This document shows positions 24,617-39,743 of a DNA stretch of 64,000 nt, in pieces (positions within the stretch are counted from its first letter, which is position 1; each line of letters starts with the position of its first letter). The position numbers were made by a program, and so were the translations under genes. Source of the DNA: Squalus acanthias (taxonomy: Eukaryota); NCBI GenBank assembly GCA_030390025.1, contig CM059432.1, forward strand, positions 42,534,001 through 42,598,000, given 5' to 3'. The notes beneath the pieces are model-generated. The model had not been told where the DNA came from, searched no databases, and was given only the letters and a program-made list of their open reading frames with translations.

Positions 24617-25262
24617 TACATCTTAAATAACGTGGTTAAAAAAATAACCATTGCATTTTCCCAGTAGTACACAGGTGTTGGGTTATGCCAACACTGAAAC
24701 CATAATGAAAACCAGTATACTCAATACTATCTACAAGTCCAAACAATGTGGAGCTTTCCTTGACAATTAGAGCATAAGGTATAACTCTGGGCCTAAAAGA
24801 TTTTGGCTTTGCCCCTTTCTTCACATTAAGGTGTTCCTTAATACCCTTTGCTGTACCAAGTTTTGGACTGAATAAGAACTTGTACTCTTCCATGAGTAAG
24901 TCTGTGGGTCTTTGAGTTGTGAACTTCTTAATATTGGCCTAGTTTAACTTCAGGCTACAAAACCAGTCTTGGTCCATCAATGAGGGAACTTGGCCCTTAA
25001 CTACAATTACAGACAATTGTTTTGTCTGATTTTCATATTTTACTTGGATGTCTATGTTCTCAAGGACTAGCAATGGATGTCCAGAATAACCTTCATGCAA
25101 AATGCCATTTTCTTTTGTAGGGCAATTTTCAGAAATATTTCCTCATATACTTTTGATGGCATAATAGTTGCCATAGCCCCAGTGTCCAACTCAAATCCAC
25201 ATGTAATACCTTCTATCCAGACAGGAACCACAATTTCACATTGCCCCTTTCCTGTTATATTT

Positions 25263-26782
25263 TGACATCCTTTGTGACTGTGACAAAGGTAAACTATCCC
25301 TCCTCGTCCTTCTTGACATGTCTGCAGCCTTTGACATGGTTGACCACTCCATCCTCCTCCAATGCCTCTCCACCATTGTCCAGCTGGGTGGGACTGCACT
25401 TGCCTTGTTCCAATCTTATCTATCTAATCGTAGCCAGAAAATCACCTGCAATGGCTTCTCTTCCCACTCCCGCATCGTTACCTCTGGGGTCCCCCAAGGA
25501 TCTATCCTTGGCCCCCTCCTATTTCTCATCTATATGCTGCCCCTTGGTGACATCATCAGAAAACATGGCGTCATTTTCCACATGTACGCTGATGACACCC
25601 AGCTCTACCTCACCACCACTTCTCTTGACCCCTCCACGGTCTCTAAATTGACACACTGCTTATCCGACATCCAGTACTGGATGAGCAGAAATTTTCTCCA
25701 ATTAAATATTGGGAAGACTGAAACCATTGTCTTCGGACCCCGCCACAAACTCAGTTCCCTAGCCACCAACTCTATCCCTCTCCCTAGCATCTGTCTGAGG
25801 CTGAACCAGACTGTTCACAACCTTGGTGTCCGTAACACCGCCCGTCTCCGCCCCTGCCTCAGCTCATCCGCTGCTGAAACCCTCATCCATGCCTTTGTTA
25901 CCTCTAGACTTGACTATTCCAACGCACTCCTGGCTGGCCTCCCACATTCCACCCTACGTAAACTTGAGGTCATCCAAAACTCGGCTGCCCGTGTCCTAAC
26001 TCTCACCAAGTCCCGTTCATCCATCACCCTTGTACTCGTTGAACCACATTGGCTCCCGGTTAAGCAACGCCTCGATTTTAAAATTCTTATCTTTGTTTTA
26101 AATCCCTCCATGGCCTTGCCTCTCCCTATCTCCATAATCTCTTACAGCCCTACAACTATCCAAGATATCTGCGCTCCTCCAATTCTGGCCTTTTAAGCAT
26201 CCCCGATTTTAATTGCTCCACCAATGATACCATTCCTTCAGCTACCAAGACCCTAAGGCCTGGAATTCCCTCCCGAGAACTTTCCACCTCTCTACCTCTC
26301 TTTCCTGCTTTAAAATGCTCCTGTTCGCCCATCACCCCTGTGCTCGCTGACCTACATTGGCTGCAGGTTAAGCAATGCCTCGATTTCAAATTTCTCATCC
26401 TTGTTTTCAAATCCCTCCATGGCCTTGCCCCTCCCTATCTCTGTAATCTCCTTCAGCCCCACAACCCCCCGAGATATCTGCGCTCCTCTAATTCTGCCCT
26501 CTTGAGCATCCCTGATTATAATCGCTCAACCATCGGCGGCCGTGCCTTCTGTTGCCGAGTCCCTAAGCTCTGGAATTCCCTGCCTAAACCTCTCTGCCTC
26601 GCTAACTCTCTTTCCTCCTTTAAGACGCTCCTTAAAACCTACCTCTTTGACCAAGCTTTTGGACATCTGCCCTAATTTTTCCTTATGTGGCTGGTGTCAA
26701 TCTTTTGTCTTATAACACTCCTGTGAAGCGCCTTGGGACATTTAATACGTAAAGGTGCTATATAAATACAAGTTGTTGTTGT
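25263..26782 (+). mobile_element. L2 LINE RT/3' region, two tandem pieces joined at ~26320
   Basis: ORF 25318-26196 with DMSAAFD, GVPQGSILGP, YADD and TSRLDYSN. The second copy has LHWL…FKTLLKTYLF and a (GTT)n tail. Confidence 0.92.
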
Positions 26783-29900: not shown

Positions 29901-30835
29901 TCCCGACCAGTCAAGGCAGCGGACCCGTTGCTTTAACACCCCCGATGGTCTGCTCGATGAGGTTCCTCATGGCAGCATGGCTCTCATTGTGTGAGTGCTG
30001 GTCACAAGTGCTGGGGTTGCAGAGAGGAGTCATCAGCCTGGTGTAGAGCGGATAGCCTTGTCTCCGAGCAGCCACCCTCAGGTTTGATTTGGTGGCTGGA
30101 AGATTGCTGGCACACCGGACTAATGCAGGATGAAGGCATCATGACTGCTGCCTGGATACCGGGCATTCACTATCATGATGTGCAGGGCGTGGTCGCACAT
30201 CAACTGTACATTAAGTGAGTCTTAGCCTTTGCAGCTGCGATATAACTCAGGATTGATATGTGGTGCCCGCAAAGCCACATGTGTGCAGTCGATGGCGCCC
30301 TGCACCATGGGGTAGCCTGATATCCCGGCAAAGCCACATGCGCGCTCCTCCTGCTTCTCTCGGTTCAAAGAGAGGACAATGAAGTCCCTTCTCCTGGAGT
30401 GCAGAGCCTCTGTGACCTCCTGGATGCAGCGATGGACGGCAAACTGGGAGATGTTAGCTATGTCTCCTGCTCCAGATTGGAAGCATCCGGTGGCAAATAA
30501 ATTGAGGGCCACGGTGACCTTGAGGGCCACTGGCATCGCCATCATTGCCCTGCTCTGAGACTGCAGGTCTGGTTGCAGGGCAGAGTTCGGTGACTACCTC
30601 CTTGGTGAAGCAGAGCCTCCTAATACACTGCTCCTGGCTTAAGTGCAGGTAGGAGAATTGCTCCCTGAAGACCCTAGGTGGGTAAGGCCTCCTGCCGATA
30701 GCCCTCCGGCCCCTCCTCCTCCTCCCTCTGAGAGCATCTTGTCCTCTTCTTTGCTGCCTTTGCTCCATCTCCCTGTCATGCCCGAGCGCGAGGGTGACTA
30801 CAAGTAAAGCGCCCATGACTAGGAGCAAGTGGTGT
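26903..30835. mobile_element. PIF/Harbinger element: spliced Myb/SANT gene (+, ~27198-29520) convergent with transposase pseudogene (-, ~29680-30816); right end lost
   Basis: Left TIR GGGGGTGAAATT. Transposase motifs GAIDCTHV, NVQL, HDAFI, LGD and CCILH. GT/AG-bounded Myb exons at ~27435, 27721-27881 and 28453. Confidence 0.9.
27943..28360 (-). mobile_element. CR1 3' fragment inside the Harbinger intron
   Basis: ORF 28053-28316 (RRNFFTQRVV..WNSLP). Confidence 0.9.
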
Positions 30836-30882
30836 GCCTGGCAGCAGTCTCCATCCCAAGTGCTATTTTGAGAGCTTTAGCA

Positions 30883-32187
30883 CAGTGGTTCTCAAACATT
30901 TTTGGTTGTAGAACCCCTTTTCAAATGGATTAGTAATCATGGAACCCCCCCCCCCCCCCATCTAATTTATTATTGCCCCCTTGTATTGGTACTGTACCAG
31001 GATCTTCTGACAATGAATTGCAATATAGCTATGGTGACATTTACAAAACAGGAATCCCTTACAGTATCTATAAAATTATAGTCATTTTAAAGCAGTGATT
31101 TTTTTAAATTACAAATGCATTGGCTAATCAGTGTATTCCAGTACTGCCCAGATTATTATGTCAGACTTGCTCCTTGGCCAGCCCTTGACCCTGGATAGAC
31201 AGAACTAATGTATGTCCGACTTACGGGGCCTGTTCTTTTTGGTCATATTCTGGCGCTGCTGCAGCTGGCTGTTGTCGGGATGGGATCTTTGTTTACAGAC
31301 GGTCGGTTCCTCTCCGAACAGCTGCCCCTGCATTTTTCCACCTCCGACTCCTGTTGCTGGCGGTGGCATTACGGCCGCTGCTGGCCCAGTCTTAATCCCT
31401 CCCTCCTTCTCCTCTTCTTGTAGCGCACAGCTGCTGCTGCCGCCACCATGGTAACCATTCACCGCCCTGCTTTTTTTTACATCTTAATTTCCCCTTTATT
31501 AAATCAAAAACACCTATAACGTATTTGCGTGTTACATTTTAAGTTAACATAGTGTGACTTGTTCCGGCCCCTTTGTCTGAGTCAGTGGCCCTGGAAAGAG
31601 CCATTCTCTCGATCTGCCAAGTCTTTCGACTGCACGCCGGATGATGGAGTCTTTGTCATTTTTGTTACAGTTGGGCATCTGGCCACTCTCCTCATTCGCG
31701 CAGCTTTTCACTTGGCTGCCTTTCAGAACATGGTCGGGTTTCTTCCACGCCTGTCTGTCGAAGGTCTCTTCGGCTTCTTAGCAGATCTCTTGATCATGGC
31801 CGATCTCCTGGTGGCTTCCTGTCCCGACGCCGTCTCCTCCGCCGTGATCTCCAGGTTTTCGCTGAGCTTGACCGAACCCGAGGCGCTGGTGCCCGCCGTC
31901 TGCACCAGTGAGCCCTTGCTCACCAGGCTCTTGACCGCCCGGTTGACCTGTGAGTTGTTCCTCTCCAGGTTGTAGCCGCTGGTCGACAGCATCTTCTTCA
32001 CGGCGGCCACCAACAAGCCACGTGCTCCTTGGTGGCCACCACCGCCTTCATGATCTGCTCGGCCACCGTGCAGCTGAACTTCTCAGTAGCTCCCGACCAT
32101 TCCGCACCGGCTTGCTCTCCATCACCGATGGGAGTTTTCTTCGCGGACCCCCTGGAAAGTCTACGGACCCCAGTTTGAGAACCACTG
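30883..32187. mobile_element. Non-autonomous hAT (Charlie-like) element carrying captured host sequence
   Basis: Perfect 15-bp TIRs CAGTGGTTCTCAAAC / GTTTGAGAACCACTG and an 8-bp TSD CTTTAGCA (30875-30882) / CTCTAGCA (32188-32195). Confidence 0.92.
31560..32095 (-). pseudogene. Histone H1 (linker histone) pseudogene fragment
   Basis: TVAEQIMKAVVATKE/RGLLVAAVKKMLSTSGYNLERNNSQVNRAVKSLVSKGSLVQTAGTSASGSVKLS matches the H1 globular domain. It has a frameshift at ~32022, in-frame TGA stops, a basic tail and a stem-loop at 31587-31602. Confidence 0.88.
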
Positions 32188-33871
32188 CTCTAGCAGACAT
32201 GAATCTGTCTTCTACCAACAGTCTCCTCTGTGTCAACGTTTCCTTCAAACCACAGACAAAGCAGTCTCTTATTGCATCTTAAAACCCACCAAAGTCACAT
32301 GTTTTGGAGAGTTTCCTCAGTTCTTCCATAAACCGATAAATTGCCTCATCTGTTTAAACTTCAAGCACTCTGCAATAACGAATGGCTTCAGGCTCAAATG
32401 TTCTTTGACCACTTGGACTAACTCCTCATACATTTTGTCTTTAGGCCAAGCAATTTATATATTGCAGGCCTGCAGATAGTAAGCAAAATTGTTTTCTATT
32501 TGGTATCTATTGCAAGTTCATTTGCCACAAAATAAAAATTAAGTCTTTTTCCATACTCACTCCAGCCCGACCCCATTCGATAATCTCTGATTTTTCCAAC
32601 TAATGCTGACATGATTAAAAAAACGTTGTGGCAAGATAGACCACTACCTAAGTAACAAAGATATTCAATCTTTTTAACACTGTGCTTTCCGTTATCCTTG
32701 TCACCATTGTTATATCCAAATAAACACTCAATGATCGTGGTAATAACTAACTGCTTTTACTTCCAGCCATTCTAGAATATTCCTGTCAAAGAATAACAAA
32801 AGCAACACAAGTGTAGTTGCGACTATGTGCTTACTCCCATCAGGGGGCTACCTCGCGTCCAGTTAACAATACCCAAGTACCATACATATCACAGGAAAGA
32901 TGGGAAGGTAAACATTGAGGGGAAGAACCATTTCCTTGTCCCAGACCAGCTCTACATCTTTGTGGGGCTAATACTTGCAAAGGATGACAATTTCTTTGCT
33001 AAAACATGCAGTATAGCAGTGAGAGAGTGGGGGTATTTCTCGTAATATAAACTGAGCAAATTAACAAAATTACATTGTTGTAACTTTCACATTTCAAAGT
33101 CACATGTTACCACAATCTTGTTAGTTGTTCTTAATTATGGAAATAAACGGGCCTTCTCCTGTTTTCAGTTAAAAGACAAATTTCAGGCCAAGTGCTCTTT
33201 ATCTGGTTGTCAGTTCCTTTTTTCCTTCTGTGCGTCTCTGTAACTCAAATAATTGCATACTCTCCGGAGCCCACCGAGGTCCACCTGATGTGCTCTGAGG
33301 ACCTTCTTCTGTTCTTTCCAAGTGCTGAGTTGTACAGGTAGTACAGAAAACTTTTGTTTTTACGATCCAGCGAAACCCTGCTGTCTGGAACATCCCCAGA
33401 ATATGCCTGCAGCATGTTGGTTATGTTATCATATTGGCAGCCGTAGTTCCTGCATAAGGTTCCACTTCACATTTCTTTCAATGCGTACTAGTGTTATTCA
33501 CAATGCAGCTGCTGCAAGTCATTAATAACAAAAATCAGAAGCTCCCAAATGTGCTACTGTACTTTATACTTTGCAAGGCAGCTTAATTCATATTGAAAGA
33601 GCTGAGTAGTAAAAATGTTTCGTCTCTTGTGATGTGATTTAAGTTTTTATCAATTTCAATAAAATGTGCCTAGTTTCTTGGGTTACAATACATTACAACA
33701 GGATGTCAAAACGAAGGCTCATGGGCTACATCCAGCCCAAGAAGTCCTGGCAACTCAATACTATTTGTGCTCATATTTCTTACTTGATTTTTCTATTTGA
33801 ATTTCGTGGGAGATTTGGTAAATGTAAGTTTATTTGTTCTTACCATTATTGCCTCAAATGAACGAACAAAA

Positions 33872-37373: not shown

Positions 37374-39743
37374 GAGAAGTCGCACAACACCAGGTTATAG
37401 TCCAACAGCTTTATTTGAAATCACAAGCTTTCGGAGCGCTGCTCCTTTGTCAGGTGAAGTGAAAAGATGCATATAGGCACAGCATATATAGTCAGAGAAC
37501 ACTGCCAGATGATTACAGTTAATCTTTCCAACTGCCCTTTATCACACCTCGGCAGAGAGATAATCACGGCAATCAAAGGTGTGGATGGTGTCCAAACAGG
37601 TCAGTCAGGAAAACATTACATCAAAGACAATGTGGCAGATGCTGGGGTCTGTATGGAAAACAAAAAACTTTTTTTGCTGGAAATCACAGCAGGTCCGGCC
37701 GCATCTGTGTAGAGAGAACAAGCCAACAACGACTCGAGTCTGGATGACTCTACGTCAGGTGGGATTACATGTAGCGTGACATGAACCCAAGATCCCGGTT
37801 GAGGCTGTCCTCATGGGTGCGGAACTTGGCTATCAGTTTCTGCTCGACGATTTTGCGTTGTCGTGTGTCTTGAGAACGCTTACCCGAAGATCGGAGGCTG
37901 AATGTCCTTGACTGCTGAAGTGTTCCCCGACTGGGAGGGAACACTCCTGCCTAGTGATTGTTGCGCAGTGTCCGTTCATACGTTGTCGCAGTGTCTGCAT
38001 GGTCTCGCCGATGTACCATGCTCTGGGGCATCCTTTCCTGCAACGTATGAGGTAGACAACGTTGGCCAAGTCACATGAGTATGTACCATGTACCTGGTGG
38101 GTGGTGTCCTCACGTGTGATGATGGTATCTGTGTTGATGATCTGGCATGTCTTGCAGAGGTTGCCGTGGCAGGGTTGTGTGGTGTCGTGGTCGCTGTTCT
38201 CCTGAAAGCTGGGTAACGCTATACACCAGATACATCGACGACATTTTCTTCCTATGGACCCACAGCGAAGGATCACTGAAAAGACTACACGATAACATCA
38301 ACAAGTTCCATCCCACCATCAAACTCACCATGGACTACTCCTCAGAATCGGTTTCATTCTTGGATACACGAATCTCCATCAAAGACGGACACCTCAGCAC
38401 TTCACTCTACCGCAAGCCCACGGACAACCTCATGATGCTCCACTTCTCCAGCTTCCACCCTAACCACGTTAAAGAAGCCATCCCCTATGGACAAGCCCTG
38501 CGAATACACAGGATCTGCTCAGACGAGGAGGAACGCGATGGACACCTATAGACGCTGAAAGACGCCCTCATAAGAACGGGATATGACGCTCGACTCGTCG
38601 ATCGACAGTTCCGACGGGCCACAGCGAAAAATCGCATAGACCTCCTCAGAAGACAAACACGGGACACAATCAACAGAGTACCCTACGTCGTCCAGTACTT
38701 CCCCGGAGCGGAGAAACTACGGCATGTTCTTCGCAGCCTTCAACATGTCATCGATGATAACGAACACCTCGCTAAGGCCATCCCCACGCCTCCACTACTC
38801 GCCTTCAAACAGCCACCTAACCTCAAACAGACCATCGTTCGCAGCAAATTACCCAGCTTTCAGGAGAACAGCGACCACGACACCACACAACCCTGCCACG
38901 GCAACCTCTGCAAGACATGCCAGATCATCAACACAGATACCATCATCACACGTGAGGACACCACCCACCAGGTACATGGTACATACTCATGTGACTCGGC
39001 CAACGTTGTCTACCTCATACGTTGCTGGAAAGGATGCCCCGGAGCATGGTACATCGGCGAGACCATGCAGACACTGCGACAACGTATGAACGGACACCGC
39101 GCAACAATCACCAGGCAGGAGTGTTCCCTCCCAGTCGGGGAACACTTCAGCAGTCAAGGACATTCAGCCTCCGATCTTCGGGTAAGCGTTCTCCAAGGCG
39201 GCCTTCGAGACACACGACAACGCAAAATCGTTGAGCAGAAACTGATAGCCAAGTTCCGCACCCATGAGGACAGCCTCAACCGGGATCTTGGGTTCATGTC
39301 ACGCTACATGTAAGCCCACCTGACGTAGAGTCATCCAGACTCGAGTCGTCGTTGGCTTGTTCTCTCTATACAGATGCGGCCGGACCTGCTGTGATTTTCA
39401 GCAAAAACAGTTTTTTGTTTTCCATACAGACCCCAGCATCTGCCACATTGTCTTTGATGTAATGTTTTCCTGACTGACCTGTTTGGACACCATCCACACC
39501 TTTGATTGCCGTGATTATCTCTCTGCCGAGGTGTGATAAAGGGCAGTTGGAAAGATTAACTGTAATCATCTGGCAGTGTTCTCTGACTATATATGCTGTG
39601 CCTATATGCATCTCTTCACTTCACCTGACGAAGGAGCAGCGCTCTGAAAGCTTGTGATTTCAAATAAAGCTGTTGGACTATAACCTGGTGTTGTGCGACT
39701 TCTCACATTTGTCCACCCCAGTCCAACACCGGCATCTCCACAT
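37374..39743 (+). mobile_element. Penelope-like retroelement: RT C-terminus plus GIY-YIG endonuclease (38217-39313) with an ~840-bp inverted pLTR
   Basis: RYIDD, FLD, YRKPT, VVYLIRC and WYIGET..LRQRMNGH motifs. 37374-38216 is the inverse of 38849-39706. 14-bp TSD TATCGTACCCATGT at 37360-37373 and 39744-39757. Confidence 0.95.
39621..39657 (+). ncRNA. Minimal hammerhead motif in the pLTR (mirror copy at 37421-37457, - strand, core mutated)
   Basis: TCAC-CTGACGA-A-GGAGC-AGC-GCTCT-GAAA-GCTT-GTGA. Confidence 0.7.

Follow-up and report, generated by a model that had tools for sequence, protein, structure and literature searches.

We analysed a 64,000-nucleotide stretch of the Squalus acanthias genome (contig CM059432.1, positions 42,534,001 to 42,598,000; hereafter the window), in which positions 30883-32187 hold a DNA transposon carrying part of a histone H1-like gene. 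This segment is very likely a hAT-type miniature inverted-repeat transposable element (MITE) of ~690 bp with a single-copy, antisense H1-like pseudogene inside it, the pseudogene being a likely derivative of an mRNA and not the result of capture at the DNA level. The MITE family contains at least eight independent events of mRNA copying, of which the H1 insert is one; host mRNAs, polyadenylated and, where the parent genes have introns, spliced, were copied into the MITE. The H1 cargo is an unamplified product of this retrocopy-trapping family. By itself the H1 piece, a dead pseudogene present once, changes little; the unexpected part, and the one that matters more, is a family that takes mRNA copies at one internal zone and in which most cargos are multicopy.

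The element is delimited by terminal inverted repeats (TIRs) and a target site duplication (TSD), and is organised as follows.

30883-32187: non-autonomous hAT-type element, TIR to TIR, one copy with the H1 insert
30883-30897, plus strand: 5' TIR CAGTGGTTCTCAAAC, also found in MITE family copies
32173-32187: 3' TIR, exact reverse complement of CAGTGGTTCTCAAAC
30875-30882, strand not assigned: left TSD copy CTTTAGCA
32188-32195: right TSD copy CTCTAGCA, one mismatch relative to the left copy
30883-31469, plus strand: left arm, MITE family positions 1-587, 80-91% identical to 39 scored places
32083-32187, plus strand: right arm including the 3' TIR, MITE family positions 1201-1305
31387-31422, plus strand: pyrimidine-rich internal tract, uninterrupted in the window copy, where seven other cargos sit in sister copies

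All 15 bases of the two TIRs pair, in line with the perfect repeats described in the original prediction, which had been made from the letters of the window alone. The 8-bp duplication claimed there is real but not perfect, since 7 of 8 bases are equal between its two copies. The insertion site was assessed by blasting the two flanks of the element separately against nine paralogous copies of the flanking retroelement. In three of the nine (L049, L050 and L051), where both alignments reach the junction, they overlap by exactly 8 bp. This implies that the site is uninterrupted in these old paralogs and that the TSD in the window is a true duplication, and it upholds the exact insertion site proposed earlier. 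The interior had also been said to lack a transposase; none was found in the element, and a Pfam search of the open reading frames (ORFs) of the region matched only Linker_histone PF00538.

A search of the 3.7-Gb genome with the whole element gave 1118 first-look candidates, the best 40 of which were scored. All 39 non-self places aligned solely to element positions 1-587 and/or 1197-1305, with 70-91% identity, and none of them covered positions 588-1196, where the H1 cargo lies. In six empty copies aligned with the window copy, position ~585 is joined straight to ~1201, and these copies have the same TIRs and their own 8-bp TSDs. The termini and 8-bp TSDs of the form nnnTAnnn recur in dozens of family copies; the TSDs AGTTAAGG, GGTTAGAG, CACTAGCC and AACTAGAG have TA in the centre, and perfect 8/8 duplications are present at L075, L076, L054, L055, L018, L012 and L007. 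A target preference of nnnTAnnn is typical of hAT transposons. The family unit is ~690 bp long, and Pfam recognises no coding capacity in it. It is an ordinary non-autonomous hAT-type MITE in which empty copies are common; the cargo-less members which the original prediction had suggested looking for were found, and its description of a non-autonomous hAT-type element with host-gene cargo is supported.

The H1 insert is 614 bp long and has the following parts.

31470-32083, minus strand: cargo, a 5'-truncated, polyadenylated H1-like retrocopy (pseudogene), borders uncertain by 1-2 nt
31471-31478, minus strand: A8 tail (T8 on the plus strand), untemplated relative to locus L032
31495-31500, minus strand: AATAAA polyadenylation signal, 16 nt before A8, conserved in L032
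31479-31719, minus strand: 3' untranslated region (UTR) of the retrocopy, 81% identical to the 3' UTR of L032 (118/145 aligned bases)
31720-32083, minus strand: coding remnant, with the Linker_histone match at about 31861-32010

Pfam assigned Linker_histone (PF00538) to the minus-strand ORF at 31723-32082 with an E-value of 2.5e-10 (40.9 bits, cut-off 22.4), in agreement with the predicted minus-strand H1 globular domain. The match spans profile positions 23-74 of 74, and the first third of the domain sits in another frame. Relative to L032, a histone gene on contig C26, the insert shows a frameshift due to a 1-nt gap near 32023 and a premature TGA stop at 31720-31722 (CGA in L032) that removes the tail; the other differences are deletions of 6 and 33 nt and a 3-nt insertion.

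When the insert by itself was searched against the genome, 13 candidates came up, and all were scored. The matches were the window itself and histone genes on C26 at 12.00-12.31 Mb, and transposon arms were found at none of the 11 loci from this search (L032-L042). With the insert in a single copy, no H1 sequence is being dispersed, and the earlier suggestion of a mobilised hAT family spreading linker-histone sequence was not borne out: the cargo is single-copy, and the other scored places lack it. L032 was the sole match over the whole insert and has an uninterrupted ORF of 221 amino acids with a Linker_histone domain. The insert starts near codon 54 of the L032 ORF, within the coding part, and is colinear with this gene through the stop codon, the 3' UTR and AATAAA; at A8, L032 instead continues with unrelated, non-A sequence. 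The start inside the coding sequence, together with an end at AATAAA and an A8 that is not in L032, indicates a 5'-truncated, polyadenylated retrocopy. The end at a poly(A) site with untemplated A therefore points to an RNA origin, and not to the DNA-level Pack capture that had been put forward. A one-off retrocopy in a MITE, which the original prediction had set against its own proposal, comes nearer, in that the insert is a single copy in an ordinary MITE; the TSD of its own expected for such a retrocopy is absent.

We examined the 29 best copies of the MITE family (loci among L002-L030) for internal segments. An extra segment was present in 15, falling into seven sequence groups (A-G). Read in the direction of the transposon, all 15 segments open with 7-10 consecutive T, and their break points lie at family positions ~505-537. 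Groups A-G are poly(A)-ended inserts antisense to the MITE.

Cargo A: 659 bp; four exon pieces of an unnamed gene on C6:27.08-27.10 Mb, GT after two of the piece ends
Cargo B: 713 bp; ATP synthase subunit c (Pfam E 3.2e-12)
Cargo C: unnamed gene at C23:28.747-28.749 Mb; spans a 1.4-kb intron with GT/AG bounds
Cargo D: NDUFS5 (Pfam E 2.8e-22); gene on C2339; spans a 1.76-kb intron with GT/AG bounds
Cargo E: unnamed; at least six loci with the left arm
Cargo F: histone H2A (Pfam E 9.7e-7); likely parent in the C26 histone cluster
Cargo G: unnamed; four loci, left arm at three

Four of these cargos (A, B, C and D) are spliced relative to their parent loci. The parent of cargo B consists of two C3 exons 11.7 kb apart, which match at 96% and 91%, and the A-run of cargo C is not encoded in its C23 parent. 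MITE arms were seen on both sides of cargo A at four loci; arms were also present at all eight loci checked for cargo B (46 candidates) and at 11 loci for cargo C; cargo F has four composite loci, and cargo D, in L002, is single-copy. Those copies of cargo C with a readable right junction share one odd junction, in which family positions ~537-556 are missing, indicating that C was captured once and then transposed. In A, B, C, D and F, the composites keep their TIRs intact and have distinct TSDs, with six different TSDs among the composites of C, three among those of B and three among those of A. Family copies with cargos were found among loci L002-L030, L053-L068, L073-L085 and L095-L125.

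Six of the eight cargos, counting H1, are multicopy, and for four of these six (A, B, C and F) we found composites with both TIRs intact and an 8-bp TSD of their own. Composites of such size are therefore mobile, and the MITE family acts as a retrocopy trap and amplifier. The idea of gene-cargo dispersal in the original prediction is thus not supported for H1 but holds for the family with other cargos. The same mobility bears on when and where the H1 insert was acquired. The H1 mRNA might have entered a MITE elsewhere, the composite then moving once, by cut-and-paste, into the gag-like retroelement that now flanks it; the TIRs of the window copy are intact, and the H1 insert shares its internal zone with cargos that did move. 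We regard this order of events as falling somewhat short of probable, since neither a second copy nor an empty donor was found in the element and cargo searches, landing in place accounts equally for the data, and the single-copy NDUFS5 in L002 agrees with inserts landing late, in copies that had already lost mobility. If such a move took place, the window would record a genuine mobilisation of cargo; by whichever order, the H1 composite gained no copies.

Between family positions ~505 and ~587, that is, in ~80 bp of ~690, lie all eight cargos (H1 and A-G), every one of them antisense. By simple arithmetic, the two-sided probability of one orientation in eight of eight is ~0.008, and the chance of all eight falling in an ~80-bp zone under uniform placement is ~3e-8, survivorship being ignored in this figure. 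To sample the family blind to cargo, we took a left-arm 25-mer and collected every place in the genome that matches it exactly (38, of which 12 were newly fetched). Such cargo was carried by 16 of the 38 and probably by three more, in which cargo B pieces were located at a distance of 3-5 kb, the link being unverified; one copy held a nested DNA transposon, and 18 were empty, deleted or rearranged. Cargo was present, then, in roughly half of the sampled MITE copies.

For the H1 insert we favour copying by a reverse transcriptase at a break. The H1 mRNA would have been copied into a break or nick in the MITE by a LINE-type (long interspersed nuclear element) reverse transcriptase, probably without the usual staggered cut, after the lineage of the window copy had split from L002. 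In cargos A and B, a 10-bp duplication, CAGTCTTTTT, lies beside the T-run and fits the signature of target-primed reverse transcription. The T-rich strand is the plus strand of the MITE, and this would explain the single orientation of the cargos.

Several observations weigh against this picture. There is no TSD around the H1 insert, beyond which the MITE sequence resumes with 1-3 nt changed (the CCCTG variant at the insertion point is also found in family copy L028), and the MITE has no T-run at that point; a canonical, endonuclease-dependent LINE insertion is not supported for H1. The A tail of 8 nt is short, and intron loss is unusable as evidence here because the L032-type gene is one uninterrupted ORF. 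As L032 is only 78% identical to the insert, the real source gene, which was not found, could in principle carry a genomic A-run at this place. Neither LINEs nor short interspersed nuclear elements (SINEs) occur among the eight cargos, which is unexpected if the copying was done by a LINE enzyme that prefers its own RNA. The junctions are of different types, with 10 bp gained in A and B, ~20 bp lost in C and blunt joins in D and H1, and those of C, D and H1 fit the target-primed picture less well. So does an L1-like T7A3 run at 31100-31112 (family position ~210), which is unbroken in every copy with tabulated break points; the pyrimidine tract 300 bp beyond it holds nearly all the inserts.

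Some of these points could be turned in favour of a classical Pack-type capture, in which gap filling or template switching placed a genomic stretch of the H1 gene, copied as DNA, inside the hAT element, and the composite then spread as an H1-dispersing family. The TIRs, the TSD and the host-gene cargo of such an element are all present; the junctions are blunt, share no more than 1 nt of microhomology and lack a TSD, which would fit repair-type joining, and Pack-TIR transposons formed by gap filling are known in animals (PMC8277862). We nevertheless consider such a capture highly improbable. The H1 cargo is single-copy and ends 16 nt past AATAAA in an A8 that is not in the sole paralog sharing its 3' UTR, and the seven sister cargos are likewise poly(A)-first and antisense, four of them being spliced.

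An alternative that keeps the RNA origin concerns the whole family, and in it the cargos were written in during repair of the MITE, with no LINE endonuclease involved. The nascent plus strand would stall in the pyrimidine tract, its terminal T-run would pair with the poly(A) of an abundant mRNA, and reverse transcription would follow, the product being rejoined with a small duplication or deletion. This would accommodate eight of eight cargos lying antisense within ~80 bp, the variable junctions (+10 bp in A and B, ~-20 bp in C, blunt in D and H1), the lack of LINEs and SINEs among the eight, and the unbroken T7A3 run, a textbook L1 site, in the tabulated copies. However, the repair step is not directly shown; the CAGTCTTTTT duplication, the poly(A) and the 5' truncation are classical marks of LINE insertion (compare PMC4224331); and survivorship could cluster the amplified cargos, since only internal inserts keep the ends usable. 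We judge it rather unlikely that repair accounts for the entire family, while a route that is independent of an endonuclease or coupled to repair is still a serious competitor of LINE-type insertion.

We can also propose, tentatively, that the MITE is a dedicated mRNA trap, whose pyrimidine tract takes abundant germline mRNAs antisense and poly(A)-first, and whose composites are multiplied by the hAT transposase. Uptake would then occur through RNA-templated repair or through a site-preferring reverse transcriptase. If true, this would be a two-enzyme route of gene duplication in a vertebrate. More generally, if the clustering reflects mechanism and not survivorship, the family would be a natural system for studying how reverse transcription and DNA transposition jointly duplicate genes, and whether RNA can act as a repair template at transposon breaks.

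The relationship between the H1 cargo and L032 gave further information on its source and age. Over the whole insert, identity is 78% (474/607 aligned bases, with 133 mismatches and 63 gap columns), and over the coding part it is 77%. The proposed search for a parent locus therefore led to a related C26 gene but, at this identity, not to the true source. The relatives of L032 are shark and ray 'histone H1-like' proteins, the best being that of Heptranchias perlo (66% identity), and the two shark proteins nearest to L032 are 58-66% identical to it along most of its length. The cargo peptide matches the Heptranchias protein at 69 of 110 residues (63%) and L032 at 66 of 113 (58%). Being nearer to Heptranchias than to L032, it suggests either that the L032 lineage is fast-changing or that the source paralog is missing from the assembly. 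CpG decay in the cargo also helps to explain the distance from L032: 21 sites with CG in L032 have TG or CA in the cargo and seven sites show the reverse, with observed/expected CpG ratios of 0.81 for the cargo and 1.01 for L032.

To see whether each cargo group forms one clade, we built a left-arm tree from the window copy and 33 others, with L056 and L065 excluded (<350 nt matched) and no support values. It was star-like, with the cargo groups scattered, and is informative solely for the pair formed by the window copy and L002, which group as sisters, each on a terminal branch of 0.036. The H1 insertion site is unbroken in L002, so the H1 capture postdates the split between the two, and, being younger than this split, it cannot have had L032 as its direct source. 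The L032-type gene has an AATAAA signal and is fast-evolving among sharks. One histone cluster at C26:12.00-12.31 Mb (L032-L042 and L126-L128) holds both L032 and the likely H2A parent. The H1 cargo is of interest as a record of how a fast-evolving shark H1-like gene looked at an earlier time.

Additional features were noted in the family. A conserved, exon-like module lies in the left arm at 31405-31456 of the plus strand and consists of the pyrimidine tract with CAG, ~27 nt and GTAACC, the ~27-nt part having a Kozak-like GCCGCCACCATG at its end; this module may have been captured from a host gene as a 5' exon or be left over from the autonomous element. One full-length hAT element, at C8:91.04 Mb (L107), was checked as an autonomous partner and rejected because its termini differ from those of the family. 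The family is probably distinct from a hAT family carrying TPP2, although the test is weak: six-frame translations of 34 left arms held none of four motifs from the TPP2 N-terminus. At least three family copies (L104, C15:61635483-61635817 and C4:116750967-116751478) are interrupted at family position 444-449. The insert at position 449 in L104 (858-1184, ~325 bp) was considered as a retrocopy and rejected; its own 8-bp TSD, GGCCCTGC, and the lack of a T-run identify it as a nested DNA transposon. A 45-bp insert behind a T-run in the right arm of L028 was not counted among the cargos.

Among the sister cargos, the possibility that cargo C is the 3' end of a LINE, raised by an ORF matching RVT_1 in L013, was dismissed because this cargo occurs in few copies (18 candidates). 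In L013 its two halves are separated by ~2.6 kb, and the reverse-transcriptase ORF falls within this gap; we read it as a nested insertion. The most divergent match of cargo E, at C6:27054318-27054738, is a possible parent and lies ~25 kb upstream of the cargo A exons (C6:27079757-27104449) on the same strand; the two could belong to one gene with two poly(A) sites or to two neighbours. In L008, a segment of ~100 bp adjoining cargo E (2492-2600; C1:57928010-57928118) matches many loci at 93-99% and is probably a young SINE-like repeat.

The sequence around the element in the window derives from a retroelement.

32188-32700, minus strand: old gag-like fragment of a long terminal repeat (LTR) retroelement; on the other side of the element, only 30835-30882

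A genome search with the right flank gave 161 first-look candidates, of which 40 were scored, with identities of 68-82%; this degree of likeness indicates that the host fragment is simply old. Homology of the left flank to the retroelement paralogs was short (34-48 bp), and the ORF pieces on either side of the element are in register with these paralogs. The gag label is weakly indicated: Retrotrans_gag matched the paralog L047 with an E-value of 0.014, below the cut-off, an Atlas feature search gave up to 0.96 to Retrotrans_gag clusters, and Pfam found no gag match in the flanking ORFs of the window itself. Long direct repeats (LTRs) that could be used for dating were not found within 20000-45000. 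The gag-like homology ends at ~30835, and further left, at 30454-30834, lies a minus-strand ORF that presumably resembles the N-terminus of a Harbinger/HARBI1-type protein. The minus-strand ORF at 30222-30593 has a borderline Pfam match to Complement C4 MG1 (E 1.4e-4). Elsewhere in the window, a reverse-transcriptase ORF at 25207-26196 of the plus strand (RVT_1, E 9.7e-20) and a weak, below-cut-off GIY-YIG match at 37833-38297 of the minus strand (E 3.4e-4) are probably parts of other retroelements.

Literature searches covering open-access papers and preprints found no hAT element that spreads retrogenes. Multicopy, gene-carrying cut-and-paste transposons are reported to be rare in animals: Tan et al. 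(2021) list 370 animal Pack-TIRs, four of which are multicopy (1.4%), and explain them by gap filling at the DNA level or by fork stalling with template switching (PMC8277862). The same survey mentions that an ARF6 retrogene within MER20 may have arisen by retroposition (PMC8277862). Pack-hAT-N8_XT, which carries the CAPSL 5' UTR, resembles the present element in being a TIR transposon with a host-derived interior, and animal Pack-TIRs are mostly single-copy, as is the H1 element (PMC8277862). In contrast, the cargo of Pack-TIRs is described as DNA-level whereas ours is RNA-derived, and against four multicopy cases in that entire survey, this MITE family alone has six multicopy cargos (PMC8277862). 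Compared feature by feature with Pack-type elements, the H1 element has host-derived sequence between intact TIRs with a TSD; mobilised cargo is seen in sister cargos A, B, C and F but not in H1; and the untemplated A8, together with sister cargos that lack parent introns, speaks against a DNA-level origin.

Processed pseudogenes are made by LINE-1 and show a poly(A) end after the signal, 5' truncation and decay. The H1 insert has the same poly(A) end, 5' truncation and decay, and intron loss is seen in sister cargos A-D; unlike typical LINE-1 products, the H1 insert has no TSD, no T-rich target and a tail of only 8 A. For comparison, the consensus target of L1 is given as TTTT/AA (PMC1950540). 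The Tx1L LINE of Xenopus laevis inserts site-specifically in the DNA transposon Tx1D (PMC1950540) and may serve as a looser analogue, since there too the product of reverse transcription occupies a favoured position within a DNA transposon. In that system, however, the insert is the LINE and the site is single and specific, whereas the MITE holds host mRNAs at several nearby sites, with no LINE seen at its pyrimidine tract.

The closest precedent is the amplification of retrogenes by bat Helitrons. Thomas et al. (2014) reported nested retrogenes that were amplified in four cases, amounting to 118 copies, and described them as the first for 'any DNA transposon'; one of the insertions was into a captured promoter region (PMC4224331). 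As in the dogfish-shark MITE described here, mRNAs were reverse transcribed into a DNA transposon, with adenine ends and 5' truncation, empty exemplars exist, and composites propagated (PMC4224331). The systems differ in that Helitrons move by rolling circle and the present family is a cut-and-paste, hAT-type MITE in a cartilaginous fish, and in that the H1 cargo has neither a TSD nor a second copy. They also differ in concentration: here, at least eight cargos were taken up by one small family, all antisense and within ~80 bp.

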